Assembly: GCA_016186765.1 (NCBI GenBank)
Contig: JACPLD010000002.1
Location: 35,272-99,271 of the forward strand
Length of the DNA stretch: 64,000 nucleotides
Direction of reading: 5' to 3'
Source of the DNA: Candidatus Kaiserbacteria bacterium
Lineage (GTDB): Bacteria > Patescibacteriota > Minisyncoccia > Phycocordibacterales > UBA2100
The notes beneath the pieces were generated by a model. The model saw only the letters and a list, made by a program, of their open reading frames with translations, was not told the origin of the DNA and searched no databases. Shown piece after piece: positions 5,495 through 52,795 of this stretch (position 1 is its first letter; each line of letters starts with the position of its first letter). Both the position numbers and the translations under genes were made by a program.

Positions 5495-6055
5495 TCACGA
5501 GCGATAGCTTGGTGGACTCTCTACGACGCCAGCACGATGGTTCGCAAGTCGCGCGAGCGCATAAAAAAGAGACGAGAGGCGGTTTGCATATGCCCGACTT
5601 GATTCAGAAATGGAACGTTCTCCAGATTCATAGAGAGTCACCAAGCAACGTTCGGCGCGCCTAGACACAGCTCGAGCGATATCGAGGCGGGCAGAAAATT
5701 CCGTCCCGCCTGGTACCAAAAACGTCTTGATCTCGGGCAATTCCTTTTCGACCCCATTGATGAGGGCGCTCATTGTCTCGACGCTTGAAGGTGGCACTAA
5801 TTTCGGCGCTCCTGCCGCTTCCGCCTGTATCGTAAAGAGGTGATCTTGCACCTCGTCCAAGAGCTCCTTCACCTTTCGCTCTCCAACAAGAAAATCGTCG
5901 GGGCACGCGACCTTGCACCAGCCGACTATCGTATTGAGCTCATCGAGCTGCCCAAGGCACTCGAACACCGGAGACGACTTCGAGATACGCTCTCCCTTTG
6001 GGGTATCAAAAAGTTTCGTTGTGCCTTTATCGCCTTTCCCCGTAAAAAGAGCCAT
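5495..6055 (-). CDS. ATP:cob(I)alamin adenosyltransferase, PduO/MMAB type
   Basis: N-terminus MALFTGKGDKGTT...LGQLDELN matches the PduO-type adenosyltransferase signature. Confidence 0.65.
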   Translation of the reverse strand: MALFTGKGDKGTTKLFDTPKGERISKSSPVFECLGQLDELNTIVGWCKVACPDDFLVGERKVKELLDEVQDHLFTIQAEAAGAPKLVPPSSVETMSALINGVEKELPEIKTFLVPGGTEFSARLDIARAVSRRAERCLVTLYESGERSISESSRAYANRLSSLFYALARLANHRAGVVESPPSYRS

Positions 6056-6059
6056 ACGG

Positions 6060-6145
6060 GTGCGCAGGGGGAGACTCGAACTCCCATGCCCTTGCGGGCG
6101 CTACCACCTCAAGGTAGTACGTCTACCAATTTCGCCACCTGCGCA
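6060..6145 (-). tRNA. tRNA-Leu (anticodon GAG), class II with a long variable arm
   Basis: Reverse complement folds as GCGCAGG acceptor / anticodon stem CTACC / loop TTGAGGT / long V-arm / GGAGTTCGAGTCTCC T-arm. Confidence 0.7.
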
Positions 6146-6157
6146 GCGCAGTAAATA

Positions 6158-6613
6158 TTACTCGGTTTTCGCCTCAACTCCAGTCTTCTCGACTGTAACC
6201 TCCTCTTTGACGTCTACCTCAGTTTCTGCCGCTGACTCCGATGCTGCCGGGATGCTCCCCACCAGACGAGTACGACGCAGCTGTCGGCGCGCTTCGCGTG
6301 CGACTTTCTCACGGATATAGTAGAGCTTCGCGCGTCGAACGCGGCTGCGCTTCACGACCTCGATCCTGTCTATCATAGGAGAGTAGAGTGGGAAAATTTT
6401 CTCAACACCAACACCACTAAGCAGCCGCCGCACCGTAAAGGTCGCGCCCGGTTCACGCCCATGCTTGCGCGCGAGTACCAGTCCCTCAAATGCCTGCAAG
6501 CGATACTTTCCTTTCTCCTCCTCGATCTTCTGCCACACGCGCACCGTGTCCCCTGGCCGGAGATCTAGATTCTTTCGCGCTTCCACATCAACAGGTGAAA
6601 TCTTTATCGTCAT
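6158..6613 (-). CDS. rplS: 50S ribosomal protein L19 with a C-terminal extension
   Basis: MTIKI...[10 protein letters not shown]...[15 protein letters not shown]...TFTVRR...[12 protein letters not shown] is an unmistakable L19. Confidence 0.85.
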
Positions 6614-6625
6614 GACGGCGCACTA

Positions 6626-6640
6626 TACCCCGTGAGATAG
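6626..6640. repeat. 15-mer TACCCCGTGAGATAG, the inverted copy of CTATCTCACGGGGTA
   Basis: Exact reverse complement of the copy at 29789-29803. Together with 6711-6725 it forms the arms of a 100-nt hairpin upstream of rplS. Confidence 0.8.
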
Positions 6641-6710
6641 GAAATTACAAGATGCATTCCAGACTTGAGAGCGCTGCTGAATCAACACGGGTCCAATTTC
6701 TTACGGTTTC

Positions 6711-6725
6711 TTATCTCACGGGGTA
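6711..6725. repeat. 15-mer TTATCTCACGGGGTA
   Basis: Matches 14/15 positions of the copy at 29789-29803. Confidence 0.8.
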
Positions 6726-6739
6726 TACCACTGCGAATG

Positions 6740-7018
6740 TCAGAAAACAACGTCGAACGAATCGAATTCTTGCAAAGGAGAGCGCCACTCGACATCGATA
6801 TCCGAAACGCGTGCGAGAAATGGTCCTTTGCGCAGATGTTCGATGAGTTTTTCGAGCTTGTCGCGGTAGCCTTGCGCGACGACCTCGACACTGAAATCTG
6901 GTGTGTTGCGCACAAACCCCGTGAGAGCCAAGTGGCGTGCGTGCTTTGCAACGAAATCGCGATAGAGGACACCTTGGACTTTTCCCTTCACGATGCATCG
7001 CACTTCTTCGATTTCCAT
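6740..7018 (-). CDS. acyP: Acylphosphatase
   Basis: V.GKVQGV.YR...GFVRN motifs; 92 aa. Confidence 0.8.
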   Translation of the reverse strand: MEIEEVRCIVKGKVQGVLYRDFVAKHARHLALTGFVRNTPDFSVEVVAQGYRDKLEKLIEHLRKGPFLARVSDIDVEWRSPLQEFDSFDVVF

Positions 7019-7019
7019 G

Positions 7020-7091
7020 TGCGCGCTGAGGGATTCGAACCCCCGACCTTCGCTGTGTAAAAGCGTTGCTCTACCACTGAGCTAAGCGCGC
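7020..7091 (-). tRNA. tRNA-Val (anticodon TAC)
   Basis: GCGCGCT acceptor, GCTC/GAGC D-stem, anticodon loop TTTACAC, GGTTCGAATCC T-arm. Confidence 0.7.
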
Positions 7092-7211
7092 ATCCCCTCC
7101 GGCAGCTTGGAAACCCTCGGTTTTCCAACGCTCGCTTCGCTCGCTGCCTTCCTCCACGGGAAACTTCCTTTTCCCGACCCCTTCCCCTACCGAGGGGCCT
7201 CGCGAAGCGAG

Positions 7212-7283
7212 TCCCCTCGGTAGGAATCGAACCTACATAGCCGGCTTAGAAGTCCGGTGTTCTATCCATTGAACTACGAGGGG
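7212..7283 (-). tRNA. tRNA-Arg (anticodon TCT)
   Basis: Acceptor CCCCTCG/CGAGGGG (an unusual C1:G72 pair), GTTC/GAAC D-stem, loop CTTCTAA, GTAGGTTCGATTCCTAC T-arm. Confidence 0.6.
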
Positions 7284-12461: not shown

Positions 12462-13472
12462 ATGTCTAAATTGCATTCTCGCATATGTTTTCCTGCAGGG
12501 CGACAAAGAATATTCCTGCAAAAAGTCCTAAAAACAATGAAGATGACAGGCCAGGTGTGCGCGAAACAACTTGGCGTACACCCCCGGACATTTTCTGATT
12601 GGAGGCGCGAAGAATATTCTCTACCGCTCCCGATATTCAAAAAAATCATCAGGAAATCTGGACTCTCAGTCACGAATGTCGAAATACGGGAACCTCAGTG
12701 GCATCTTGAGGAAGCATCGGTAAAGGGAGGCTTCGCTCACTACAAAAAGTACGGATCAGTCTCTATTGACGAGGATCTTCGTAAGGAGCGTTGGCGCACT
12801 TGGTGGGAGAGCGAAGGCAGGTTCAAACAGTCAAATTGGTTTAGGACAAGACCCGTGCGGAAACCGATCCCCAATACGGCGTTGGCAGAATTTGTGGGTA
12901 TTGTTATAGGTGACGGCGGAATAACCAATCGACAAGTTACGATTACTTTGAACAGTGAAACGGATCATGAGTATTCTCAATTCGTAAGCGGCCTAGTGAC
13001 GAGATTGTTTAAAGTACCTGTCAGTAAAATAATGCGAAAAGGCGACATCGCCGTACGTTTAACCTGTTCTCGAACAGAAATGGTACGCATATGCATTGGT
13101 ATTGGCCTCAAGAAAGGAAACAAGCTGAAGCAAAATCTCGACATTCCTCTTTGGATAATGCGAAATCCACAATATGCAAGGGCATGCCTACGCGGACTCA
13201 TGGATACTGATGGTTGCATCTTCAATGAATGCCATAACATTCGCGGGAAGCGGTACTGCTATCCTCGATTGTCATTGGTAAGCGCCTCGGAGCAGCTTCG
13301 CCATTCAGTAAAAAGAATTTTGCACGAACATGGATTCTCGCCTACACTGCGGAATGCAAGAAGCGTCAACTTGGAACGTCGCGAGGATATCGTTCGATAC
13401 TTCCGAAAAATAGGAAGTAATAATCTGAAACACATTCGACGCTTCGAACAATTTACAGGAGGGGTCGGATAA
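12462..13472 (+). CDS. Free-standing LAGLIDADG homing endonuclease (double motif) with an N-terminal HTH
   Basis: LAEFVGIVIGDGGI and LRGLMDTDGCIF motifs. The stop codon lies inside the first 15 nt of tRNA-Ser. Confidence 0.7.
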   Translation: MSKLHSRICFPAGRQRIFLQKVLKTMKMTGQVCAKQLGVHPRTFSDWRREEYSLPLPIFKKIIRKSGLSVTNVEIREPQWHLEEASVKGGFAHYKKYGSVSIDEDLRKERWRTWWESEGRFKQSNWFRTRPVRKPIPNTALAEFVGIVIGDGGITNRQVTITLNSETDHEYSQFVSGLVTRLFKVPVSKIMRKGDIAVRLTCSRTEMVRICIGIGLKKGNKLKQNLDIPLWIMRNPQYARACLRGLMDTDGCIFNECHNIRGKRYCYPRLSLVSASEQLRHSVKRILHEHGFSPTLRNARSVNLERREDIVRYFRKIGSNNLKHIRRFEQFTGGVG

Positions 13473-13539
13473 TGGTATTCCACTAGTCTTGAAAACTAGC
13501 GCCCGCAAGGGCTTGTGAGTTCGAATCTCACCCCCTCCG
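13458..13539 (+). tRNA. tRNA-Ser (anticodon TGA), class II
   Basis: GGAGGGG acceptor, loop CTTGAAA, long V-arm CGCCCGCAAGGGC, GTGAGTTCGAATCTCAC T-arm, and G73. Confidence 0.7.
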
Positions 13540-13594
13540 CAGCTATTCACAGCCCCTCCCGAGAGAGCTTGCGCCCAGTGTACAATGCCTTTAT

Positions 13595-13999: not shown

Positions 14000-14116
14000 C
14001 AGTTAAGCTCCAAACACCAAGAAACAAATTCCAAACGATACCGGTTTGGAATTTAGGTTTTGAGTATTGAACATTGTTTGGTTATTGCGTCTTGTGATTT
14101 GGGATATTATTGGGAC

Positions 14117-14587
14117 ATGCCTCAATCATCCATTCCCATCCGCTGGAGAGCGTACGAGCATGAGCACATCGAACGCGGTGGCGACTGGTACTGGGCACTC
14201 GGAATCTTTGCCGGAGCCGTGGCACTCATTAGCGTGCTCCTTGGCAATATACTCTTTGGTATTGTCATCCTCGTTGCCGCCGGCACGCTTGCCATGCTTG
14301 CCTCCTCACCGCCGCCATTAGTCGAATTCGAGCTCTCTGATCGGGGCATCAAAATCGGCGATACGATGCACCGCTACGAGGACATCATCTCGTTTTGGGT
14401 CGAGGATCACGACGCCGATCCGCCCATTCTTCTCGTTGATACTACCAAGTGGCTTTCCCCCAATCTTGTGATCCCTCTCGAGGATGTCGACCCGAAGCAC
14501 GTGCGTGCATACCTCGTGGAGCGTGCGAGCGAAGTGCCGATGAAAGAGCCCGTGTGGCACAAAATCCTCGAGGCCTTCGGACTCTAA
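14117..14587 (+). CDS. Hypothetical membrane protein
   Basis: Two TM helices; the start at MPQSSIPIRW is chosen over the upstream extension. Confidence 0.4.
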   Translation: MPQSSIPIRWRAYEHEHIERGGDWYWALGIFAGAVALISVLLGNILFGIVILVAAGTLAMLASSPPPLVEFELSDRGIKIGDTMHRYEDIISFWVEDHDADPPILLVDTTKWLSPNLVIPLEDVDPKHVRAYLVERASEVPMKEPVWHKILEAFGL

Positions 14588-14675: not shown

Positions 14676-16550
14676 TTACTGAACGGTGACGATCGTGCTC
14701 GCCTGCCGCGTGCCGCCGCCGATCGTTACGCACTTGAGAACGAATGTTGCAGCAGAGGAGAGCGGTGGTGTGACGACTGCGCCATTCACGTTCGTCGCAT
14801 TTTTATTCTGCTCGGTAAAGCTCGGCAGGTCGGGACTCGAAATGACGCACGACTGCATCCCCGAGGTAACCCATCCAATTGCCGAAGTTGTGCCAGAGAA
14901 CACCGTCTTTGGATTCGTGATAAGTACGATCCCGGGTTTTGCGACCTGTATGCTGCAATCCTTCGATACGTTCCTGCCCTCATCGGTACACGTGAGACCA
15001 TAGGTCGCGACGTTCGTACCCAATGGAGGATTCGCGATGGTGACAGTGGTCGAGCCAGTCTGCGCGCCGTTCGTCTGGAAGCCAGAGCCAGAACTCGTGC
15101 CTGAGGAGCAGGAATAGGTGATCGCTATCGTCATTCCGACATCAGCGATCTGCGGCTGGCACGAGAGCTGTGCGGTGAGCGACGTGCCGCCACTGCCCGT
15201 CGGCACGCACTGCCAGCCGACGACACATGAGTTGTTTTGCCCGCCGTAGGTCGGCTTCCACGTTCCGTCTTGGCACGGTTGCTGCGGTTGCACGGGCGCC
15301 GGCGGACAATTTTGCCCTTGCTGAGGCGGGGGAGCACACTTATTGCTCCCTGAACCGGAGCCCCCGAACAATCCGAACAGTCCCGAGCTTCTGGAATCTC
15401 CCGACCCTTGAGCACAGCCGTACTGGCAGTATTGCACGGGGGTGTCAACGCACTGATTGTTACGAGAGTACAATGTGTTGCCTTGACAGATCGTCTGCCC
15501 ACCGTAGCACGTTCCTGGCGGACGCGGCATCTGGTTCCCCGGCGGAGGCTGCCCTCCAAGACCCTGCGGCATCCCTCCTCCACCTCCCGGCCCTCCTGGA
15601 GGAGGAAACGTTGACGGCGACGGCGGAGGAGGAGGGGGTGGTCCAGGCGGGGGTGGAGGTGGTGTATTACCATCACCACCCGGCGGATTCTCGAGAGCAC
15701 TCAATTTCTTCTGATTCTCTCTCAACTGAGCAAGACGGCTCTGAAGTTTTTCCAACCCTTCCTGTGCTTGGTCAAGATTTTCTTGCGTGTCGTCCCTGTC
15801 GTTATACTGTTTATCGCATGGAACGCCACCTGTATCACCGACACATTTGGCGAGCTTGTCAAGGGCTGCTTCGTAGGCTTCGCGAGATTCTTTGACGGCC
15901 GTTTCTTGATCTTTGATTTTCGACTCGACATCTTCAATCTCGCCGTCGAGGACTTTCTGCAGGGCATCCTGGGTCGCCTTATCAAGCGTGCCCTGCGAAC
16001 CGAGAGCGTCCGTGAGGTCTTTACTTAGCTCAGGCGATTTCTCTAATATCTTCTTGATCTCTTCCGCACTCAATGGCTTGCCGTTCTCGTCAAAAAATTC
16101 GTTCTGGCATTCACCCTTTTTTACATTGGGGTTCGGGATTGATTGTATCTCACCAGTTCCATCACGCTTGAGGACCACTTTGGAGTCCATGCCGGAACAC
16201 TCCTTCGCGCCATAAAAGTAACTCACGCACCTGTTTGCTTCAACCGTTTCGCCTTTCCCTAGTTTCGTTGTTGCACTACCAGCAATAACAATCTGATTAG
16301 GTTTTGTTGCTTTGCTCTTCAGCCCACTGCATATCTTTTCTATTTCCTTGCTGAGCTTTTCCTGTTCGGCTTTCGCAGACCCCTCCGTAGGAGACGCCGC
16401 AACTGCAACCTGCGTGTCACCTGCTACCGAAGAAAGCGGTGGGGTGGCGAGCTCGAAGGTAGCAACAGCTCCTGCGCCGAGCATGAGGGCAACCACGAGC
16501 GCACCAAGGACAGACACGCCACGCTCTCCCGCATGCGGGGATTTGCTCAT
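14676..16550 (-). CDS. Secreted Cys-rich, poly-proline protein (paralogue A), probably a surface protein
   Basis: Signal peptide, coiled coil, PPPPPPGPPPPPPPSPSTFPPPGGPGGGG, many Cys pairs, and a C-terminal domain shared with 22031-23419. Confidence 0.65.
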   Translation of the reverse strand: MSKSPHAGERGVSVLGALVVALMLGAGAVATFELATPPLSSVAGDTQVAVAASPTEGSAKAEQEKLSKEIEKICSGLKSKATKPNQIVIAGSATTKLGKGETVEANRCVSYFYGAKECSGMDSKVVLKRDGTGEIQSIPNPNVKKGECQNEFFDENGKPLSAEEIKKILEKSPELSKDLTDALGSQGTLDKATQDALQKVLDGEIEDVESKIKDQETAVKESREAYEAALDKLAKCVGDTGGVPCDKQYNDRDDTQENLDQAQEGLEKLQSRLAQLRENQKKLSALENPPGGDGNTPPPPPPGPPPPPPPSPSTFPPPGGPGGGGGMPQGLGGQPPPGNQMPRPPGTCYGGQTICQGNTLYSRNNQCVDTPVQYCQYGCAQGSGDSRSSGLFGLFGGSGSGSNKCAPPPQQGQNCPPAPVQPQQPCQDGTWKPTYGGQNNSCVVGWQCVPTGSGGTSLTAQLSCQPQIADVGMTIAITYSCSSGTSSGSGFQTNGAQTGSTTVTIANPPLGTNVATYGLTCTDEGRNVSKDCSIQVAKPGIVLITNPKTVFSGTTSAIGWVTSGMQSCVISSPDLPSFTEQNKNATNVNGAVVTPPLSSAATFVLKCVTIGGGTRQASTIVTVQ

Positions 16551-19210: not shown

Positions 19211-20212
19211 ATGATCGTCCGTGTCCTCATCGGCTTTGCGATCGTCACACTCGCCGTGCTCATTTTCCTTTGGCTTGCGACAGGCGGTGTGCAAGAGATT
19301 GCCACTATCGCGCGCGGGATTACCAATCCGCTCCGTATTTTTAGCGGAGGATTGAGTTCGTTTCGCCTCCCCTGGCAGCCTGAACAGCTGACGCGTGGCC
19401 CGATCGTGAACGCTGGTGAAGAAATTCCAGGTACAGAAGGTACACAAGAGCACGGTGCGCCGGAAGAAGAGTTGGCCGGTGCACAGAAAGAGTACGACGC
19501 TATCGTGAAGGAGATGCAGTCAGCACAGAATTTCGGCGAGCCTTCGCCGTACCGTGGGCAGGTAACGCTTATGCAAGCCTCTGCTGCACAAAGCGGCGCT
19601 TCAGAGGAGTACATGGAGCTCGAAGCTGCATGGGACAACACAGCACCAGTGAAGATAAGCGGTTGGTCGCTCCAGAGCGCACTCACGGGCATTCGCGCCT
19701 ACGTGCCGCGCGGCGCGCATCCTTTCATCTTGGGTTCCGTCAACATACAAAACGACATCTACCTCGATCCGGGCAGCTCTGCTATCCTCCCCTCGGGAGC
19801 ATCTCCCCTTGGGACCTCATTCAGAGAGAATGCGTGCACGGGATACCTCGGCAGACTGCAGAGCTTTACGCCGCCTTTGGAGCGCGTCTGTCCCGCTCCG
19901 AGAGATGAGTTGCCGTTCACACCGGAAAACATCAGAACATATGGAGAGGCGTGCTTCGATTTCGTGCAAACGATTACCTCGTGCACTTTTCCTGCAGACG
20001 TTCCCTCGAACGTCTCGCCCGCATGCCACCTCTTTCTTGCGAACAACCTCTCCTACAACGGTTGCACGCAAAACCACCGCCATGAGAGCGATTTCGCGCG
20101 TAACACATGGCGCATGTACCTCAATGCCGGCGGCGAGCTCTGGCGCAACTCGCACGACATCATCCGATTGCTCGACCAACAAGGAAGGACTGTCGATATG
20201 GTCTCCTACTAG
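19211..20212 (+). CDS. Membrane-anchored hypothetical protein with a lamin-tail-domain (LTD)-like segment
   Basis: N-terminal TM; EYMELEAAWDNTAPVKISGWSLQS resembles the LTD core (W.EL.N.....D.SGW.L). Confidence 0.4.
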   Translation: MIVRVLIGFAIVTLAVLIFLWLATGGVQEIATIARGITNPLRIFSGGLSSFRLPWQPEQLTRGPIVNAGEEIPGTEGTQEHGAPEEELAGAQKEYDAIVKEMQSAQNFGEPSPYRGQVTLMQASAAQSGASEEYMELEAAWDNTAPVKISGWSLQSALTGIRAYVPRGAHPFILGSVNIQNDIYLDPGSSAILPSGASPLGTSFRENACTGYLGRLQSFTPPLERVCPAPRDELPFTPENIRTYGEACFDFVQTITSCTFPADVPSNVSPACHLFLANNLSYNGCTQNHRHESDFARNTWRMYLNAGGELWRNSHDIIRLLDQQGRTVDMVSY

Positions 20213-21090: not shown

Positions 21091-21163
21091 CCGCCCGTAG
21101 CTCAATTGGTAGAGCAGCGACCTTTTAAGTCGTTGGTTCCGCGTTCGATTCGCGGCGGGCGGA
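21091..21163 (+). tRNA. tRNA-Lys (anticodon TTT)
   Basis: CCGCCCG/CGGGCGG acceptor, GCTC/GAGC D-stem, loop CTTTTAA, CCGCGTTCGATTCGCGG T-arm. Confidence 0.7.
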
Positions 21164-21166
21164 CCT

Positions 21167-22024
21167 GTGAACTCATTTAAACAACGCTGCATCGAACTGC
21201 GGAAGCAGGACCTGACTCTTCCGGAAATAGTGCGAATCACGGGTCGCCCGAAATCCTCCGTACACTTTCACATACAAGATATTCCACTTAGCAGTCGGAA
21301 ACTACAGAAAATTCGAGATGCAAACGTACTACACATAAGAAACATCGCATTGCAACGCAGAGGCGTGAGCGCGCGACTTTTTAAGAAATTCACGAAGTGG
21401 GACCGTGATCTGGTCTGCCTTGTCTCTCACCTACTCTTTGATGGTGAAATAAAACGCGGTGGGTGCATCTACAACAATAGAAATGCTGCGTTGCTTGAAC
21501 ATGTAGAAAGTTGCATGAAAAGAATCTACCCTGCTTCGCCAAGGCGATACATCAACACACATACCGGTGTATCTCGTATCAGCTACTTCAATGTGTCACT
21601 TGGAGAATACATAAAGGAAAAGTCGGTGCATTTGCTTCGAGCAATACCTTCAATGTCCGTGGAACTTAAAAGAGCTTTTTTACAGTCCTTTTTTGATGAT
21701 GAGGGATGTGTCAACTTTCGGCCGCACAGAAATCATCGACGGATCCGAGGATACCAAAAGGATGTGGCGATCTTGAGCGTGGTTAAAAGACTACTTGCCG
21801 ATTTTTATATTGAATCGCGCATTCAGCTTCCAAACGAAATAGTAATCATCGGTAAGGAAAATTTTCTTAAATTCCAAAAAGAAATCGATTTCTCTCCGGG
21901 CGTACGCATCAATGGAAAGCGCTCCAATAGCATCTGGAAAAAATCTCTCGAGAAGCGCGAATTGCTTGAGCGTGCAATAGCATCTTACAAACCCGTCGGA
22001 AGCAACGGCGTGCACCGTACGTAG
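21167..22024 (+). CDS. Free-standing LAGLIDADG homing endonuclease (second, divergent copy) with an N-terminal HTH
   Basis: LVSHLLFDGEI and LQSFFDDEGCVN motifs; overall layout homologous to 12462-13472. The only possible start is GTG, 3 nt after the tRNA-Lys 3' end. Confidence 0.6.
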   Translation: MNSFKQRCIELRKQDLTLPEIVRITGRPKSSVHFHIQDIPLSSRKLQKIRDANVLHIRNIALQRRGVSARLFKKFTKWDRDLVCLVSHLLFDGEIKRGGCIYNNRNAALLEHVESCMKRIYPASPRRYINTHTGVSRISYFNVSLGEYIKEKSVHLLRAIPSMSVELKRAFLQSFFDDEGCVNFRPHRNHRRIRGYQKDVAILSVVKRLLADFYIESRIQLPNEIVIIGKENFLKFQKEIDFSPGVRINGKRSNSIWKKSLEKRELLERAIASYKPVGSNGVHRT

Positions 22025-22030
22025 TGCGGA

Positions 22031-23419
22031 CTAAATTGTGAGTTGAACCGTTACGTAGTCCGTCACGGGCGTTCCGCCAGGAGTGAGACACGAGATCGTG
22101 AATGTCGTTGCGCCCGAAAGTGGGACCGTCGCGGCCCCACCCGAGAGCGAGTCTTCATTGAAGCTCCCATCGGGCGAGGTGATTGAGCAGGTTGAGACTC
22201 CCCTTGTGTTCCAAAATACCGACGTGCGCGTGCCAAGCGACACCTTATCCGGCACTGCCCAGATCTCAACCTGCGGCGGCACGGTCGGCGCCTGCGGCTG
22301 TGGGGCAGGTGCGGGGGCAGGGGCAGGAGCCGGCGGGGTTGCCTGTTTCTCGACGACGGGCACCGAGGGGGGCGCGGGAGAACCCACCTGATAGCCACGC
22401 CACGCGCAGAGACTGTCGAAGAACGCTGGCGGGATCACGAAGGAGATAACAGAAGTCCCCCATGGGCGACTCTGACACATACCCGAAACAATGCCCTGCG
22501 GCTGCCCGCCGAGCGTATCGGAGCCGTAGAAGCCAGCAACCTCCGTGTTCGCTCCAGGGTCGCGCGCCTGTGCGACGATGGTTGCGCCCCCGTCGGTCAC
22601 GACGATATCACCCCGCGTCCCGGATTGCAGATTCACCTGCTCGCCGGAGAGGTTCGTGCCGATGGCAGGAGCAGGAGGTGGTGTGGTACCTGTGGATGTC
22701 TTTACTTCCCCGAGCTTGGGAAGCGCATCGCTCACGTTCAACAATGCGCCCTCCCCGGCGCCGCTTCCGGCGTTCAGCGCATTCAAAAGCTCGTCGGAGC
22801 CGCTTGTGGTCAAAAGCGAATTTAGTGAATCTGATGTCGGGGGAACATAGTAGGCGCAAGGATCCACCGAAGGAACCGTCACCTGGTAGTACGACGTGCA
22901 GCCGCTCGCACCTCCAAGGTTTCCCGACTGCGGGGGTGGTGGCGGGGGTGGTGGCGGCTGTCCTCCACCCCCTCCACCTTGCATCGCCTGCTTCAGCATA
23001 TCCATGACACCCTTGAGCACATCCATCATTCCCTTCGCATCGCCAACGCCCTGCGATTGGCCCTGCTGGTCCGTGAAGCTCGTTCCTTCACATTTATTTG
23101 CTGCCACACATATGCCGATAACCTTCCCGCCGGGCGGTGTATCGAAACATATCCCGGGAGGGCACAGGTACGTGTTCTTGCCGCCGATGCATGTGCCGTT
23201 CGGTCCGGGGATTTTGTTGCAACCACATTTGGGTATCCAAGGATTGCACATCGCGTTCGCCGCGCCACTCATCGCTGCATAAGCAGTAAAAGGAACAACG
23301 AGGAATGCCAAAAGAAATCCCACGGTAAGAACCATCGCGAGACGAAGACTCATGCACTCAATGCTACAAGACCGTATACAATCCGCAACAGCTTTTTTTA
23401 GGATTTGTTGACACCCCAT
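22031..23419 (-). CDS. Secreted Cys-rich, poly-proline protein (paralogue B)
   Basis: Signal/TM segment, Cys-rich N-terminus, GGGGGGQPPPPPPPPPQ and PAPAPAPAPAPQPQAP runs, and a C-terminal domain WNTRGVSTCSITSPDG...ATTFTISCLTPGG...VTVQ aligned with paralogue A. Confidence 0.6.
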   Translation of the reverse strand: MGCQQILKKAVADCIRSCSIECMSLRLAMVLTVGFLLAFLVVPFTAYAAMSGAANAMCNPWIPKCGCNKIPGPNGTCIGGKNTYLCPPGICFDTPPGGKVIGICVAANKCEGTSFTDQQGQSQGVGDAKGMMDVLKGVMDMLKQAMQGGGGGGQPPPPPPPPPQSGNLGGASGCTSYYQVTVPSVDPCAYYVPPTSDSLNSLLTTSGSDELLNALNAGSGAGEGALLNVSDALPKLGEVKTSTGTTPPPAPAIGTNLSGEQVNLQSGTRGDIVVTDGGATIVAQARDPGANTEVAGFYGSDTLGGQPQGIVSGMCQSRPWGTSVISFVIPPAFFDSLCAWRGYQVGSPAPPSVPVVEKQATPPAPAPAPAPAPQPQAPTVPPQVEIWAVPDKVSLGTRTSVFWNTRGVSTCSITSPDGSFNEDSLSGGAATVPLSGATTFTISCLTPGGTPVTDYVTVQLTI

Positions 23420-30121: not shown

Positions 30122-31858
30122 CTAGAGCCACCAGAAGAGCGCCTCCCCGATGTTCGTAAAGAGAGTGCCGACTGCTTCTCCAATTGTTCCGAAGCTTTTA
30201 CCCATCACCGAAAAGAAACTCCGCGGCGGAGGTGTACCCTCTTCCCCCTCGCCGGGAATAAATCCATCAATTGGCGAAAACGGCTCGAACGGCGTGTCCG
30301 AAATCTGCGGCTCTTCGGTTTCACTCACTCCTTCCACATCTGCGCTTTGCGATGCATCGCCTCCAACATATGGGGAAGAAGTAGTGCCCGCGATGTCCTC
30401 GATCGCTTCGCTAGCACCTCGGGCACTCTCCCCTCCCGCAAAGCCTGACGGAATCGATTCGAATGGTTCGGAGGCGACATTAATGGGCTCAACTATCGTG
30501 GGATCTCCCGGCACGAGCGTCGACTCGTCGGCGGAAAGTGTCAAGATCAAACGTCCGCGCTCAAGCGGCGGCTTCTCCTCGCGCACGGGCAGCTGCTCCT
30601 CTGCTTCGCCCACTGACTCCTGCTGCAACGTTTCCTCGGAGGAAAAAGCACTGCTCACAAATTCGCCCACCGGCGCCACGACGTTGTCTAAAATCGTACG
30701 GACGAACGAATCTGCACCCTCCTGCCCCTCAAGATCTTTCGCTGTTACGTTCACACTCGGCCGCTTTGTGTTTTGCGCGAGGTTCGCGATGATGTCGGCC
30801 GGGGAAGGCAGCGGTTTGGGAAAGGTGGGCATGGTAGTGACGGTGACCCCGAAGTCTTTGTTGTAGTAATAGCTAGGCTCTTGCGGGGTGTGCGCGATTG
30901 TGCGGACCGTGGAACCACCCGCGCTGCCGCTTCCACCTCCGCTTCCGCCGTTACCGAACACCCAATTTGCGACATTGCTCAAAATCGGCGAATCCCAAAA
31001 CGACTGCCTCGGCACACCGGACTCACTCGGCGGTCCTCCTCGCGCGTCGCCAGAAGATTTGCTCGGAGCAGCACCAGAGTCTGCTATGTTTCCAATTCGT
31101 TGCGCCGCAGAAGTTTGTGCACCCGGAGTTTCCCCCCCTGCCGAGGACGCGGGCGCTTGGGCAGTGGGAGCTTGCGCTGCGATTTGTCCGGTCGGTGCTG
31201 TAGGCGCTTGAGCGGCTGGTTCAGTAGGTTTTGTAGCATCGGAAGCCGGAATAACTTCCGCAGCAGTAGGCCTTGTGGGGTATTCGGGAGCAGACTCGTA
31301 ACCAGCCGCAGGCTTAGGAGGTGTGCACCCTTCACAAACAGTACCCGTGTTAAGCCCCGCGGTTGGTTTAGTAAGCTGCTTCAATGATTCCTCATCCCCC
31401 TCTTCGATTTGTTGGGGATTCCCTTCCTCATCCACGTAATAATCAGCTTTACAATTCTCGACTCCAACACAGTGACCTTGCACATCTACATTGGCTTCTT
31501 CCTTAAATTCAACGCACGACCTCCCGAACAAGTTAGTTATCTGCGCCGGCTTACCTGTTGAGGAATCATATCCCGGAAATGTCGCCGGATACCATCTGCT
31601 CTTGTCACCCACCTCAAGATAGCGCGCCGTTGGAGTTTCAGAAGGACATTGTTTATTCGAGCCTGTTAATGACTGCGGCACATCTGACAGCAGAGATCCG
31701 CCCGAGCTGCCGGACGATGCTGGGGCGCTTACGTCCGCAGCCGCCAGCTGCCCTTTAGGCAGGACCGCATCAGCATCCGGCTCTAGCACCCAGACCATCG
31801 TCCCAAATGCAAGACACAAACCGAAGAATACAAGAAGTCTCTGCGCTCCCTGCTGCAT
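30122..31858 (-). CDS. Large secreted low-complexity protein (Ala/Pro/Thr/Gln-rich)
   Basis: N-terminal signal anchor and PTEPAAQAPTAPTGQIAAQAPTAQAP repeats; 578 aa. Confidence 0.5.
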   Translation of the reverse strand: MQQGAQRLLVFFGLCLAFGTMVWVLEPDADAVLPKGQLAAADVSAPASSGSSGGSLLSDVPQSLTGSNKQCPSETPTARYLEVGDKSRWYPATFPGYDSSTGKPAQITNLFGRSCVEFKEEANVDVQGHCVGVENCKADYYVDEEGNPQQIEEGDEESLKQLTKPTAGLNTGTVCEGCTPPKPAAGYESAPEYPTRPTAAEVIPASDATKPTEPAAQAPTAPTGQIAAQAPTAQAPASSAGGETPGAQTSAAQRIGNIADSGAAPSKSSGDARGGPPSESGVPRQSFWDSPILSNVANWVFGNGGSGGGSGSAGGSTVRTIAHTPQEPSYYYNKDFGVTVTTMPTFPKPLPSPADIIANLAQNTKRPSVNVTAKDLEGQEGADSFVRTILDNVVAPVGEFVSSAFSSEETLQQESVGEAEEQLPVREEKPPLERGRLILTLSADESTLVPGDPTIVEPINVASEPFESIPSGFAGGESARGASEAIEDIAGTTSSPYVGGDASQSADVEGVSETEEPQISDTPFEPFSPIDGFIPGEGEEGTPPPRSFFSVMGKSFGTIGEAVGTLFTNIGEALFWWL

Positions 31859-36157: not shown

Positions 36158-38533
36158 ATGATCCGAAAAATCCGGAAGTTGTGGCGGAAGATGCCGGCGT
36201 GGATGGAGCTTTCACTTGTCGCGATGGCGGCGTTCTTTTTAATTGCGCTCGGGAGCGCGGTCGTGTGGGCGACTCTGACACCTATCCCCGCCATCGACAA
36301 CTTTGAGAATCGCAAGGTCGCAGAGTCGACAAAAATCTTCGATCGCACCGGCAACATTGTGCTTTTCGACGTCTATGGCCAGATCCGCCGCACCTCGGTA
36401 CCGCTCGAGGAAATTTCTCCATATATCCAGAAAGCGACGATCGCGATCGAAGACACCGAGTTCTACAACCACAGAGGCTTCCGCCCACTCTCCTTTGCGC
36501 GCGCACTGCTCGCGAATCTGAAAAGCGGAAGCTTTAGCCAGGGCGGATCCACCATCACACAGCAGGTCGTGAAAAATGCGCTGCTGACGCAGCGAAAAAC
36601 CATTGGCCGCAAGCTCGAGGAGATCATCCTCGCGCTCCGGCTCGAGCGCGCCTACACGAAGGAACAGATCCTGCAGACCTACCTCAACGAGACTTCCTAC
36701 GGTGGAACCATCTACGGGGTGCAGGAAGCAAGCCAGTACTTCTTCGGCGTCGACGCCAAAGACATCGACCTCGCGCAGGCCGCCTACCTCGCCGCATTAC
36801 CGCAAGCGCCCACACGCTACTCGCCCTATGGTAGCCATCGAGACCTTCTCGATGCCCGCCAAAAGCTCGTGCTGCGGCGCCTTCTCGATGAGAAACTGAT
36901 AACCGAGGAGGAGTACGAACAAGCTGCCGAAGAAGCCGTCACGTTCCGCGGCGGACAGACGGCAGGCATCAAGGCGCCGCACTTCGTCTTCTTCATCCGC
37001 GAGTACCTCGAAGAAAAGTATGGCGCCGACACCGTAGCGCAGGGGGGCCTTCGCGTCGTCACCACGCTCGACTGGGAGCTGCAGGAAAAAGCCGAAGAGG
37101 TTGTCAAAAAGCACGCGCCCTCGATGGAGAGAAATTTCAACGCTGGCAACGAGGGCGTCGTCGCGATCGAGCCCTCAACCGGGCAAATCCTCGCCATGGT
37201 CGGCTCACGCGACTACTTCGAAGAGAAAATCGACGGCGCGGTCAATGTGACGACCTCCTTCCAACAGCCGGGCTCGGCCTTCAAGCCCTTCGTCTATGCA
37301 ACCGCACTCGAGCGCGGCTACACGCCGGAGACAGTTGTCTTCGATCTGCAGACGCAGTTTTCGACAGCCTGCTCGCCGCAGGAGGTGACGAACTCTACGC
37401 CGCCCTGCTATGCGCCAACGAGCTTCGACAATACCTTCAAGGGTCCGGTGACATTCCGCGAAGCGCTCGCGCAATCCCTCAACATTCCCGGCGTGAAAAC
37501 CCTTTACCTCGTCGGCGTCGAAAACGCCTTGAAGATGGCAGAGCGCGTCGGCATCACGACACTCGGCAACGCGGCGGGCTATGGTCTCACGCTCGTTCTC
37601 GGCGGTGGCGATGTGACGCCCTTGGAGCTCACGGGCGCGTACGCCGTTCTCGCAAACGACGGTGTGAAAAATCCCCCGACGGGAATCCTTCGCGTGGAGG
37701 ACCGGGAGGGAAACGTCTTGGAAGAGTACGAGGAGCAAAGCGAACGAGTGATGGAAGCGCAGATCGCGAGACAGATCAGCGATATCCTTGCCGACAACGT
37801 CGCGCGCACACCCGAGTTTGGCGCAAACTCGCCGCTCTACTTCCCGGGCTACGACGTCGCGGCAAAAACAGGCACGACGAATGATTACTGGGACGTCTGG
37901 ATTCTCGGCTACACACCCTCAATTGCGATAGGTGCGTGGGCCGGCAACAACGACAACACGCCGATGGAAAAACGTATCGCTGCGTTCATCATCGCGCCGA
38001 TGTGGCACGAGATCATGGCGTTCGCGCTCGAAACGTATCCAGCAGAGTCGTTCACGCCACCTGCGCCGGAAAATGATGAGGCGCTCCCTCCGGTATTGCG
38101 GGGCAACTGGAACACCGACCCTTCACAGGGCGTGCACGAGATCCTCTACTGGGTCGACAAAGATAATCCCCGGAGCGGTCGCACCTCCAACCGCAGCGAT
38201 CGGCAGTTTCTCTACTGGGAGTATCCGCTTTCGCTCTGGGGTGCAAGCCTCGGCGCACCGAATGCGCCTCCCTTAGGATTTATCATCACCTCTCCTCCCA
38301 ATACTGGAGTCGTGCGCGCCTTCGAGCCGTTCACGCTCTCGGCGATGCACCCGCATCCGGAACTTGTGGAGCGCGTCTCCTACTACCTCAACGGTGGCTA
38401 TGTCGGTGCCTCTGTGCAAGCCCCATATGCCCTCACGCTCGTGCCGGAAGGCACCGGCGCGATGCAGCTCACCGCGGTTGCGGAAACCGCACTCGGCGCC
38501 GAAACGAGCACCATCATGTTCACCATCCAATAA
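36158..38533 (+). CDS. Class A penicillin-binding protein (glycosyltransferase plus transpeptidase)
   Basis: GT51 motifs (EDTEFYNHRGF, GGSTITQQ) and transpeptidase motifs (SAFKPF, KTGTT). Confidence 0.85.
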   Translation: MIRKIRKLWRKMPAWMELSLVAMAAFFLIALGSAVVWATLTPIPAIDNFENRKVAESTKIFDRTGNIVLFDVYGQIRRTSVPLEEISPYIQKATIAIEDTEFYNHRGFRPLSFARALLANLKSGSFSQGGSTITQQVVKNALLTQRKTIGRKLEEIILALRLERAYTKEQILQTYLNETSYGGTIYGVQEASQYFFGVDAKDIDLAQAAYLAALPQAPTRYSPYGSHRDLLDARQKLVLRRLLDEKLITEEEYEQAAEEAVTFRGGQTAGIKAPHFVFFIREYLEEKYGADTVAQGGLRVVTTLDWELQEKAEEVVKKHAPSMERNFNAGNEGVVAIEPSTGQILAMVGSRDYFEEKIDGAVNVTTSFQQPGSAFKPFVYATALERGYTPETVVFDLQTQFSTACSPQEVTNSTPPCYAPTSFDNTFKGPVTFREALAQSLNIPGVKTLYLVGVENALKMAERVGITTLGNAAGYGLTLVLGGGDVTPLELTGAYAVLANDGVKNPPTGILRVEDREGNVLEEYEEQSERVMEAQIARQISDILADNVARTPEFGANSPLYFPGYDVAAKTGTTNDYWDVWILGYTPSIAIGAWAGNNDNTPMEKRIAAFIIAPMWHEIMAFALETYPAESFTPPAPENDEALPPVLRGNWNTDPSQGVHEILYWVDKDNPRSGRTSNRSDRQFLYWEYPLSLWGASLGAPNAPPLGFIITSPPNTGVVRAFEPFTLSAMHPHPELVERVSYYLNGGYVGASVQAPYALTLVPEGTGAMQLTAVAETALGAETSTIMFTIQ

Positions 38534-38621: not shown

Positions 38622-39716
38622 CTATCTATTAAGGGGCATCACAAGGTACGTGAACGATGGATCCGAGACGCCCCTGATCACTAAGGGCTTCCCCGCACCT
38701 GAAAAGCCGAGAATGATGGAATCGGATTCGATAGTCGGCAGGCAATCTGCGAGGTAGCCGATGTGAAAATTGATGTCGAGGTCCTCCCCCGAGAGCGCGG
38801 CATCAAGCGAGTCTGACATCTCACCTATATCCGCGCTGCGCGCGGTCGCACTGAAAATCTTTCTACTAGGGTAAACATGGAAGCCGATGTGTTGATCATT
38901 GCCCGAAAAAACCCGTGCTTTCTTCAGCATTTCAGAGAGATCGCTTTTCAAAACGGTCGCTTCCGTAGAAAAGATCTTCGGGACGATCTCCTTGTAGTTC
39001 GGAAACGTGCCGTCAACGATGCGCGAGATGAAACGGACACCATCAGCGGAGACCGAAAGTTGTGATTCGTCAGCGGTAAGCTTCACCTGCGCTCCTTCAG
39101 CGTGTTCGAGCACGTGGGAAAGTTCGAGTGCGTGCCTGAGAGGAAGGAGCACCTCCTCTCCCCGCTCACTCGAGCCGATCATCTTCTCGGCGAGCCTGAA
39201 CGAATCGGTTGCGACACAGATAACCCCAGTGGCTCCCACTAAAAGGTAGATGCTCCCCAACTCCGGTCGTATCATTGAGGGTGAGGCCGCATACGAAACA
39301 GCCTGCAAGCCTCGCAAGAGTTGCTCTCGAGAAACATTCTCCCCCTTCCCGTCTGTCGGTGGCGAGAGGGTCGGGAACTCATCGTGCGGCATACCCTTTA
39401 TAACGGTCTTCGTCCCCCTCGATTCAATGAGGAGGTTGCCATCCTCCGCCGACAAAGTCACCTTGTCACCGTGGGTTGAGCGCAGAGTTTGCGAAAGCAC
39501 GATAGCGGGCACCGCGATGATCCCTTTTTCATCAACCTCACCAGGGACAACAACCTCAACACCTGCTTCAAGATTTGTTGCCCGTAGTACGATGGTTTTC
39601 CCACTCACCTCAAGAAGGATGCAGGATAGTGTTGGGAGTGTTTCCTTCTTACCCGTGAGCCTCTCCGCAATGAGAACACCACCCAGAATCTTTTCTTTGG
39701 TTGTTGATGCTCTCAT
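38622..39716 (-). CDS. dnaN: DNA polymerase III beta sliding clamp
   Basis: Full-length DnaN-like sequence and its position after dnaA. Confidence 0.85.
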   Translation of the reverse strand: MRASTTKEKILGGVLIAERLTGKKETLPTLSCILLEVSGKTIVLRATNLEAGVEVVVPGEVDEKGIIAVPAIVLSQTLRSTHGDKVTLSAEDGNLLIESRGTKTVIKGMPHDEFPTLSPPTDGKGENVSREQLLRGLQAVSYAASPSMIRPELGSIYLLVGATGVICVATDSFRLAEKMIGSSERGEEVLLPLRHALELSHVLEHAEGAQVKLTADESQLSVSADGVRFISRIVDGTFPNYKEIVPKIFSTEATVLKSDLSEMLKKARVFSGNDQHIGFHVYPSRKIFSATARSADIGEMSDSLDAALSGEDLDINFHIGYLADCLPTIESDSIILGFSGAGKPLVIRGVSDPSFTYLVMPLNR

Positions 39717-39943
39717 ACTATTCTTTTATATATAAATACTATTACTACTACTAGTCCTGTGGATATGGGGTATATGTTGAATTGATCGAGGGATTAATCG
39801 ACTGTTTGGTTTTTGAGATATGTTGAAAACATTCGGATTCGATGTTGGTGATGTGGATGAGATGCGACTACGTGGTAGTAGGTGTTGAAAAGAGTAAAGA
39901 TGTTCTCTGGTAATTCGGGTAGCAATTCACAGGAAATCCGCTG
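39717..39943. promoter_or_regulatory. Candidate oriC / DNA unwinding region between dnaA and dnaN
   Basis: A strongly AT-rich island in a 60% GC genome, with DnaA-box-like 9-mers ATATCCACA (complement of 39757-39765) and TCATCCACA (complement of 39853-39861). Confidence 0.5.
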
Positions 39944-41302
39944 CTACGAATGGATTAATGTACGAAGGTGGTCGATTTCCTGCTCGAGTGACGTGTTCGA
40001 TTTTATCTCCTCTTTTATCTTCTCGCATGAATGAATTACCGTCGTGTGGTCGCGCCCGCCGAGCTTCTCGCCGATCGAGGGATACGACACACTGAATTCT
40101 TCCCGCAGCATGTACATAATGACTTGCCGTGGCTTCACCACTTCTTTCTTGCGCGTTTTTTCGTAAATGCTCTTTTCGTTCACCTCGTAGTAGCTTGCGA
40201 TACGGCGCACCACCTCTTCAACAGATATCCCTCTATTCGGCTTGATATTGTGCTTGATGAGCGCGCGCACGTCCGCTTGTGTCACTCCCTTTCCTTTCAG
40301 CTGGGAGCGGCACACGATCATGTTGAGTATACCCTCGAGCTCGCGGATATTGCCGCGGACGTTCTCCGCGATATAGAGGATAATGTCCTCGGGAATAGAA
40401 AAACCGTGCTGGTCGAGCTTCGCCTTGATGATCGCGATGCGAGATTCCATGTCTGGCTCTGGGATCTCTGCGATCATGCCGGCGCTAAAGCGGCCGCGCA
40501 GACGCTCTTCAAGTCCGGAGAGCATTGCGGGGTGCTTATCAGAAGAAAAGACGATCTGCTTGTTGTTGTCGTAGAGCGTGTTGAAGAGGTGGAAGAGCTC
40601 TTCCTGTGTTTTTTCTGTGTTCGCGATGAACTGCACATCGTCCATGACGAGTATATCGTATGCCCGGTACTGATCTTTGAATGAGTTGGCACGACCGGCG
40701 CGCACCGCGTTTAAGTAGTCGACAGAGAAACGCTCACTCGTGACGTAGAGAACCTTCTTGCTCGCATGCGTTTTCTTGAAACGGTTCCCGACGGCCTGAA
40801 TGAGGTGTGTCTTACCGCGTCCGGTTGCCCCGTAAACGAAGAGCGGATTGTATGCGAGGCCCGGACGCTCGATGACTGCTTTCGCGGCAGCGTGCGCGAG
40901 CTGGTTGAAGGGTCCGACGACGAACGTCTCGAAGGTGTAGCGCGGGTTCAGATTGTCGCGCTTGTCGATATAGAGGTTGTCGAGGTCGAGTGATGCGTTC
41001 TCTGGTGCCTGAACACGCGCCGGCCGCCTCTCCGCGGCCGCGGGAGCGCGGTGCACGACGTACTCGACGCTGCGGATGCTCGCGTCAAGGCCGCGGAGGG
41101 CTTTGAGGACGAGCTTGTTGTGCTTCTCGACGAGCCACTCCTTCACGATCTTAGAAGGAACGGCGACTTGGACGACTCCGCTGGAGCGCCCGGCGATGTC
41201 GGTGTTCTTGAACCACGTTCGAAAACTTGCCTCCGATGTGCCAAGCTCGATCTGGACGAGAGCATTTTGCCAAAGCTCGCGGTTGCTTAGGGGAAACGAC
41301 AT
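39944..41302 (-). CDS. dnaA: Chromosomal replication initiator DnaA
   Basis: GATGRGKTHL, LMDDVQF, and the C-terminal VLREEFSVSYPSIGEKLGGRDHTTV. Confidence 0.9.
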   Translation of the reverse strand: MSFPLSNRELWQNALVQIELGTSEASFRTWFKNTDIAGRSSGVVQVAVPSKIVKEWLVEKHNKLVLKALRGLDASIRSVEYVVHRAPAAAERRPARVQAPENASLDLDNLYIDKRDNLNPRYTFETFVVGPFNQLAHAAAKAVIERPGLAYNPLFVYGATGRGKTHLIQAVGNRFKKTHASKKVLYVTSERFSVDYLNAVRAGRANSFKDQYRAYDILVMDDVQFIANTEKTQEELFHLFNTLYDNNKQIVFSSDKHPAMLSGLEERLRGRFSAGMIAEIPEPDMESRIAIIKAKLDQHGFSIPEDIILYIAENVRGNIRELEGILNMIVCRSQLKGKGVTQADVRALIKHNIKPNRGISVEEVVRRIASYYEVNEKSIYEKTRKKEVVKPRQVIMYMLREEFSVSYPSIGEKLGGRDHTTVIHSCEKIKEEIKSNTSLEQEIDHLRTLIHS

Positions 41303-52790: not shown

Positions 52791-52795
52791 CATAA

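Follow-up and report, generated by a model that had tools for sequence, protein, structure and literature searches.

Two conserved, cysteine-rich Kaiserbacteria proteins with export signals share a widespread Ig-like module

Bacteria of the Candidate Phyla Radiation (CPR), or Patescibacteria, make up a large share of bacterial diversity. Their cell surfaces, presumed to mediate dependence on other cells, are to our knowledge almost entirely uncharacterized. Here, we analyzed a stretch of 64,000 nucleotides (nt) from a Candidatus Kaiserbacteria genome (contig JACPLD010000002.1, positions 35,272 to 99,271; hereafter “the window”), focusing on two genes, A and B, whose products are cysteine-rich and contain proline tracts. 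CPR genomes have been shown before to encode exported Cys-rich proteins with a proposed role in attachment (PMC4736985). Like the large Cys-rich proteins of Peribacteria (PMC4736985), A and B carry export signals, are unusually rich in Cys, have no assigned function, and are proposed to act at the surface. When compared by description, however, the Peribacteria proteins average ~1,650 amino acids (aa) and vary among strains, whereas A and B are 440–624 aa long, single-copy, and conserved. A search of the literature for Kaiserbacteria surface proteins yielded nothing specific.

A second point of comparison is the pneumococcal PspA or M-protein type of Gram-positive surface protein, which A resembles in joining an alpha-helical coiled coil to a proline-rich spacer. 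Unlike PspA, A is probably anchored at its N-terminus, ends in immunoglobulin (Ig)-like domains, and has neither choline-binding repeats nor LPXTG. Its match to the NCBIfam model pneumo_PspA (NF033930) reaches 24.9 bits against a cutoff of 850 and involves the coiled-coil and Pro-rich regions only, whose composition drives it; identity with PspA was rejected. A sortase-anchored Gram-positive adhesin or pilin was also rejected for both proteins, neither of which has LPXTG or a C-terminal hydrophobic segment; A ends in ...TIVTVQ and B in ...VTVQLTI, straight after the last beta strand.

Both open reading frames (ORFs) were confirmed on the minus strand (A, 14676–16550; B, 22031–23419), and all of the peptides that the earlier note on this DNA had quoted occur in them. 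We place the true start of B at Met23 of its ORF, the position from which its homologues open with a classic signal peptide. Promoter and terminator scans returned nothing beyond shuffle expectation.

14676..16550, minus strand: gene A, an ORF of 624 aa encoding a conserved Kaiserbacteria “hypothetical” exported protein, located between S20 and p175/pilin.
22031..23353, minus strand: gene B, 440 aa from Met23 (the ORF reaches 23419, 462 aa), encoding a conserved Kaiserbacteria “hypothetical” secreted protein.

The C-terminal domains of A and B are homologous. BLASTP aligns A residues 539–624 with B residues 382–459 at 37% identity over 86 aa (composition-adjusted E=4e-9), and comparison of the isolated C-terminal domain family profiles with hhalign gives 98% probability and E=2.3e-13. 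The similarity that had been noticed in the sequence, and that was open to refutation by an insignificant E-value, thus withstands statistical alignment. It is also confined to this domain. No further segment reaches E<0.3 in the BLASTP comparison, and alignment of the full-length family profiles (45 sequences for A, 77 for B) recovers only the last ~91 columns (E=4.6e-8). In the combined alignment of C-terminal domains from the two families, P9, W22, C30, G46, and C63 are invariant. When both domains are run against the window with tblastn, they find only each other, so a third copy is absent.

We then used a profile built from 40 C-terminal domains of both families to search 1.84 billion cluster representatives exhaustively. 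The module proved to be abundant: at E≤1e-3 the profile matched 6,092 proteins, and at E≤1e-10 it still matched 1,854. Most of the best 150 matches are large, the longest reaching 4,490 aa, and typically have 5–24 tandem copies of a repeat whose consensus includes ...LTWSSTNATSCTASGGWSGSKATSGSESTGPLTATTTYTLTCTGAGGS... (“LxWSSxNAxSC...TYTLxCxGxGG”). Few matches carry a source name; these are a Patescibacteria “hypothetical protein” and one “choice-of-anchor U” protein from a Pseudomonadota metagenome-assembled genome. No model in Pfam or NCBIfam captures the repeat. In the reciprocal direction, a hidden Markov model (HMM) of 400 repeat units from unrelated proteins, with A and B left out, scores 52.2 bits for B residues 380–461, 41.0 bits for A residues 538–624, and 13.2 bits for A residues 458–537, compared with a best domain score of 8.3 bits among 400 shuffled controls. 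Because these scores exceed those of the shuffles, B carries one copy of the repeat and A one clear and one divergent copy.

A and B share with this repeat family the profile match, the Trp and Cys pair of the WSSxNAxSC...TYxLxCxGxGG signature, and a predicted beta-sandwich of ~80 aa (model confidence as predicted local distance difference test, pLDDT, ~90–98). They do not have the long tandem arrays typical of the family, with two copies in A and one in B, and in contrast to the canonical repeat proteins these copies come last in the protein, preceded by unrelated domains. Each of the two subtypes also has strongly conserved surfaces of its own, such as FWNTKGVxSC and LSGGAATVPL in B. Elsewhere the module is usually internal. 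Of 149 multi-repeat proteins, just 13 end with the repeat, so it does not serve generally as a sorting tag at the C-terminus; the isolated domains have no NCBIfam match, and a sorting or anchoring tag like the type IX secretion C-terminal domain (Por_Secre_tail, TIGR04183) was rejected. In a comparison with ~940 repeat units from unrelated proteins, the domains of A and B come only fourth to fifth as mutual best match, and their match to each other (44 bits) compares with 46 bits for repeats of unrelated proteins. On these sequence comparisons, both belong to a promiscuous domain family and are not exclusive sister copies.

Fold searches with the module returned only generic Ig/PKD-type sandwiches, including SoxY, collagenase PKD, alpha-2-macroglobulin domains, GhpA fragments, Fc receptors, invasin, Hoc, and phage virion proteins. 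The module resembles PKD/Big domains (collagenase ColG/ColH) and the SoxY fold in being a beta-sandwich of ~85 residues (Foldseek E 5e-4 to 1e-2; target-normalised TM-score 0.55–0.69). It differs from PKD/Big in sequence, with 9–17% identity, and its disulfide pattern is no PKD hallmark. Neither A nor B matches Pfam PKD (PF00801/PF18911) or Big at E≤1, and PKD has no match at E≤0.01 in the 77 and 45 family members. Another Ig-like module occurs on an envelope protein of the same genome: the class A penicillin-binding protein encoded at 36158–38533 (plus strand), which has transglycosylase and transpeptidase domains, carries a C-terminal Big_7 at residues 710–773.

AlphaFold2 models built on the family alignments, together with sequence conservation, resolve the domain layout of the two proteins. 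The features of A, from the N-terminus to the C-terminus, are as follows.

16443..16523, minus strand: N-terminal hydrophobic anchor (residues 10–36) with the family motif GERGxSILxxLVxxxMLG; predicted helix at 13–25.
15999..16388, minus strand: helix, small beta domain with 4 Cys, and short helices (residues 55–184); pLDDT ~80–90, even Cys count.
15699..15980, minus strand: antiparallel coiled-coil hairpin (residues 191–284) with Cys236/Cys245 at the turn; predicted helices 191–238 and 246–284, pLDDT 86–97.
15519..15689, minus strand: disordered Pro/Gly linker (residues 288–344) with PPPPPPGPPPPPPPSP; pLDDT <50, mixed codons.
15186..15518, minus strand: two small Cys-rich knots with 6 and 4 Cys (residues 345–455); predicted beta hairpins, pLDDT 70–85, conserved Cys columns.
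14940..15185, minus strand: divergent Ig-like repeat Ig1 with 4 Cys (residues 456–537); predicted beta-sandwich, pLDDT ~90, HMM 13.2 bits, hhalign E=5e-5 to Ig2.
14679..14939, minus strand: C-terminal Ig-like repeat Ig2, common to B (residues 538–624); BLASTP, hhalign, HMM 41 bits, pLDDT 92–98.

In the A model, the first helix and the small beta domain span residues 55–153, with the short helices after them, and the two beta-sandwiches lie at residues 460–537 and 540–623 (pLDDT 90–98). A profile search of Protein Data Bank (PDB) sequences returned coiled-coil noise only, as did comparison of the coiled-coil region with Pfam and NCBIfam.

The features of B are listed below. Model residues are numbered from Met23, and residues 380–462 of the C-terminal repeat follow the full ORF.

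23276..23353, minus strand: signal peptide MSLRLAMVLTVGFLLAFLVVPFTAYA; n-, h-, and AxA c-regions kept across the family.
23048..23266, minus strand: N-terminal Cys-rich beta domain with 8 Cys (residues 31–100); pLDDT ~97, conserved Cys.
22907..23047, minus strand: amphipathic helix (model residues 103–123), then Gly/Pro linker GGGGGGQPPPPPPPPPQ; linker pLDDT <50, 12-bp unit ×2.3.
22838..22906, minus strand: small disulfide hairpin GCxxYYQVTxPSxDPCAYYVPP (residues 150–170); near-invariant motif, pLDDT ~80–84.
22379..22636, minus strand: central alpha/beta domain with invariant F, C, RPW, FFD, C, and GYxVG; 61% mean column identity, pLDDT 85–91.
22283..22378, minus strand: Pro/Ala linker PAPAPAPAPAPQPQAP; low pLDDT, mixed codons, imperfect 6-bp unit ×4.3.
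22034..22282, minus strand: C-terminal Ig-like repeat common to A (residues 380–462); BLASTP, hhalign, HMM 52 bits, median 62–64% identity across species.

The stretch between the hairpin and the central domain of B (residues 172–239) is predicted to be disordered, and the C-terminal beta-sandwich spans residues 360–440 (pLDDT ~90). The central domain is modeled as three strands and three helices (residues 245–320); 17 of its 91 alignment columns are invariant and its length is fixed at 79–81 aa. It shows no similarity to any Pfam, NCBIfam, or PDB family and was not found in other architectures, the search for these having recovered only four fragments. The 8-Cys domain likewise has no sequence relative in the PDB and no Pfam family, and a profile search of PDB sequences with B returned nothing.

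The order of modules thus differs between the proteins: anchor, beta/coiled coil, Pro/Gly linker, Cys knots, Ig, and Ig in A; signal peptide, Cys domain, helix, Gly/Pro linker, hairpin, disordered stretch, central domain, Pro/Ala linker, and Ig in B. Neither BLASTP nor the full-length profile comparison detects homology between the Cys-rich regions of A and B. Because the latter returns the C-terminal domain alone, the Cys- and Pro-rich parts are alike in composition but not homologous. The view that A and B are paralogues with the same layout, taken in the earlier note, is therefore set aside, and we reject a single full-length paralogous family.

Cysteine enrichment, by contrast with the layout, had been recognized correctly. 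A has 22 Cys (3.5% of its residues) and B, counted from Met23, has 14 (3.2%), a six-fold enrichment over the 0.54% seen in 14 housekeeping proteins of the window with confident annotation (binomial P=1e-11 and 2e-7, respectively). The Cys count is even in every predicted domain of both proteins. Neither has a hydrophobic segment beyond its N-terminal anchor or signal peptide. Of the two signal peptides that had been proposed, the one in B stands: it is a family-wide Sec signal with a basic n-region, a hydrophobic core, and an AxA site, which in the window reads ...FTAYA followed by AMSG. In A, the sole hydrophobic segment is the GERGxSILxxLVxxxMLG motif kept across the family, which is not obviously cleavable and which we read as a probable membrane anchor or atypical signal peptide. 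GERGxSILxxLV resembles TadG-type N-termini, a likeness that has no profile support. A Tad/Flp pseudopilin-like N-terminus (TadE/TadG, PF07811/PF13400) was rejected, there being no Pfam match at E≤1 in A or at E≤0.01 in 45 family members.

The proline tracts are present where they had been placed, in A at nt 15615–15662 and in B at nt 22931–22957 and ~22310–22340. The accompanying suggestion that CCN-repeat DNA offers a substrate for slipped-strand variation is not borne out by the codons. Proline is encoded by a mixture of CCA, CCT, CCC, and CCG (for example, CCA CCT CCA CCC CCG CCT GGA CCA CCC CCT CCT CCT CCG CCG), and neither Tandem Repeats Finder nor a scan for exact repeats finds a perfect triplet repeat longer than 11 nt (3.7 copies) in A or 8 nt in B. 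The single notable repeat is a 12-bp unit present 2.3 times at 22930–22957. Slippage is not supported, because the tracts mix synonymous codons and perfect triplets do not exceed 3.7 copies; phase variation was rejected, given that repeats in both genes are trivial and a long perfect short-unit repeat is absent. Among orthologues, the Pro/Gly linker of A ranges from 47 to 202 aa and the Gly/Pro linker of B from 16 to 32 aa, and the folded domains keep their lengths across species within one or two residues. The linker differences are ordinary insertion and deletion drift in disordered spacers, and not evidence of a contingency locus.

Homologues of A (44) and B (322) among the matches listed are nearly all annotated as “hypothetical protein” and come from Candidatus Kaiserbacteria, Parcubacteria, and Patescibacteria; nearly all members of both families fall within Kaiserbacteria/Paceibacterota. 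B was found in 70 species-representative genomes. In 61 of these 70 loci it lies directly downstream of polA and a gene for a 212-aa protein (p212) on the same strand, and in the remaining nine it is at or near a contig edge, so this order holds wherever the locus allows it to be judged. Downstream of B follow an occasional LAGLIDADG gene and genes for a small membrane protein, SpoU, a Lamin Tail Domain (LTD)-like protein, a Mur ligase, RuvA, and S20, and after S20 come A, p175, and a type IV pilin. The conserved C-terminal half of A follows S20 in at least 22 loci. A is convergent with p175 and the pilin gene and lies outside their operon. Because the whole block of ~15 genes is syntenic housekeeping, the neighboring genes are uninformative on function.

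Between the pilin gene and A, and convergent with A, 14060–14587 (plus strand) encodes a conserved membrane protein of ~155–175 aa without a Pfam match, whose position is kept in 18 related loci; its listed TTG start is probably too far upstream, because the orthologue is 155 aa. Type IV pilus genes are likewise present in the window (pilin, PilM/N, and a PilB-like ATPase). At 19211–20212 (plus strand), a 333-aa protein with 1.8% Cys and a sub-threshold LTD match (25 bits versus a cutoff of 34.3) is syntenic in 53 of the 70 loci, and may be a further conserved protein of unassigned function in the same block. Two free-standing ORFs with LAGLIDADG_3 domains each abut a transfer RNA (tRNA) gene: 12462–13472 (plus strand) overlaps the start of tRNA-Ser (13458–13540), and 21167–22024 (plus strand) begins 2 nt after tRNA-Lys (21091–21165). 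Both lie in the window’s two stretches of low GC content (0.48 and 0.51 versus ~0.56), and a homologue of the latter occupies the same site just downstream of B in eight other species.

Two species carry full-length B as a tandem duplicate (the duplicates are at 896–2275 of locus L006 and 5894–7273 of locus L007), versus one B in the window; true paralogues of B thus occur in other genomes. The second copy is more divergent and is followed by a multi-pass membrane protein of ~685 aa that is missing from the window at that position.

Across the same loci, the C-terminal module of B has a median identity of 62–64% (1.27 bits/aa), on a par with PolA (63%), RuvA (64%), S20 (64%), and SpoU (66%). 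Medians are 52% for the central domain of B, 47% for its Cys domain, and 51–54% for the Ig domains of A, and the N-terminal half of A is too divergent to detect across loci.

We consider it probable, if by no means settled, that A and B are two different clade-specific, disulfide-stabilised extracytoplasmic proteins of the envelope or surface, linked only by one shuffled Ig-like module. B would be exported via Sec and freed into the envelope by cleavage of its signal peptide, and A would stay tethered to the membrane through its N-terminal hydrophobic segment. From there A could project outward, with a beta/coiled-coil stalk, a Pro/Gly spacer, the Cys knots, and two Ig-like domains at the distal end. 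Disulfides may stabilise each folded module, and the Pro-rich segments may serve as extended, length-tolerant spacers through the cell envelope. The terminal Ig-like module of both proteins would bind a ligand likewise conserved within the clade, with the cell’s own envelope, pilus, or wall, or the other protein (an A–B contact), as candidates. We favor a conserved ligand over a rapidly varying host ligand because the terminal module of B changes at a rate as low as that of proteins for replication and repair. Both proteins would then be parts of a core cell-surface apparatus rather than variable adhesins.

An unlikely though still plausible alternative, which builds on the adhesin or fibril reading of the earlier note, would make A and B paralogous fibrillar adhesins for host or partner cells, with Pro-tract lengths varied by slipped-strand mispairing. 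The module is typical of giant multi-repeat surface proteins, its fold matches include invasin, fragments of the grappling-hook protein GhpA, and Hoc-like phage decoration domains, and linker lengths do vary between species. CPR bacteria are also thought to be episymbionts, and attachment has been proposed for exported Cys-rich proteins (PMC4736985). Yet only a single domain is homologous between A and B, each gene is single-copy in a fixed syntenic position, and the Pro-tract repeats are far below those of typical contingency loci; moreover, the C-terminal domain of B is as slow as PolA and RuvA, unlike host-facing adhesins. Somewhat less likely still, B could be a secreted enzyme or toxin-like effector, with the central domain (RPW, FFD, GYxVG, and one predicted disulfide) as its active core, the Ig module as a targeting or solubility tag, and A functionally unrelated. 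The central domain is the most sharply conserved block in its invariant columns and constant length, and its invariant Asp, Arg, and Trp residues would fit a site for catalysis or ligand binding. It is small (~80 aa), however, resembles no known family, and is not found fused to other domains.

That the similarity between A and B is an artefact of chance or composition in two low-complexity ORFs is hardly credible. G, P, S, and T do abound in both proteins, and most secondary BLAST segments are insignificant, but the C-terminal match survives composition adjustment (E=4e-9), recurs in profile comparisons (E of 2e-13 and 5e-8), and is recovered by an independent HMM at 41–52 bits, versus at most 8.3 bits in 400 shuffles. 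The P, W, C, G, and C positions are invariant in both families, and both domains are confidently predicted as beta-sandwiches.

Elsewhere in the window, dnaN and dnaA are adjacent (38622–41302, minus strand) and cumulative GC skew reaches its minimum at ~38–40 kb, so the chromosomal replication origin probably lies inside the window. A VirB4/TraG-like P-loop ATPase is encoded near two large ORFs (855 and 525 aa) without a Pfam match (46086–48032, 50319–52886, and 52796–54373, all minus strand), and this group may be a type IV secretion or conjugation-like cluster. A 578-aa ORF at 30122–31858 (minus strand) has no Pfam family at E≤0.001.

Our analysis defines two conserved, syntenic, exported families of Kaiserbacteria, both already present in databases as hypothetical proteins. 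The module they share is of a known structural kind, Ig-like surface repeats, and is abundant without having a curated Pfam or NCBIfam model. The two small domains of B without detectable relatives are useful for structural genomics and for the definition of new domain families. Current understanding is not overturned by these results. We raise, as a tentative and rather doubtful suggestion, that B, and A to a smaller extent, could be a core surface component that defines the Kaiserbacteria lineage and mediates an essential, conserved interaction. If so, the interaction of B would be, for example, in envelope assembly or in physical contact needed for the episymbiotic lifestyle.

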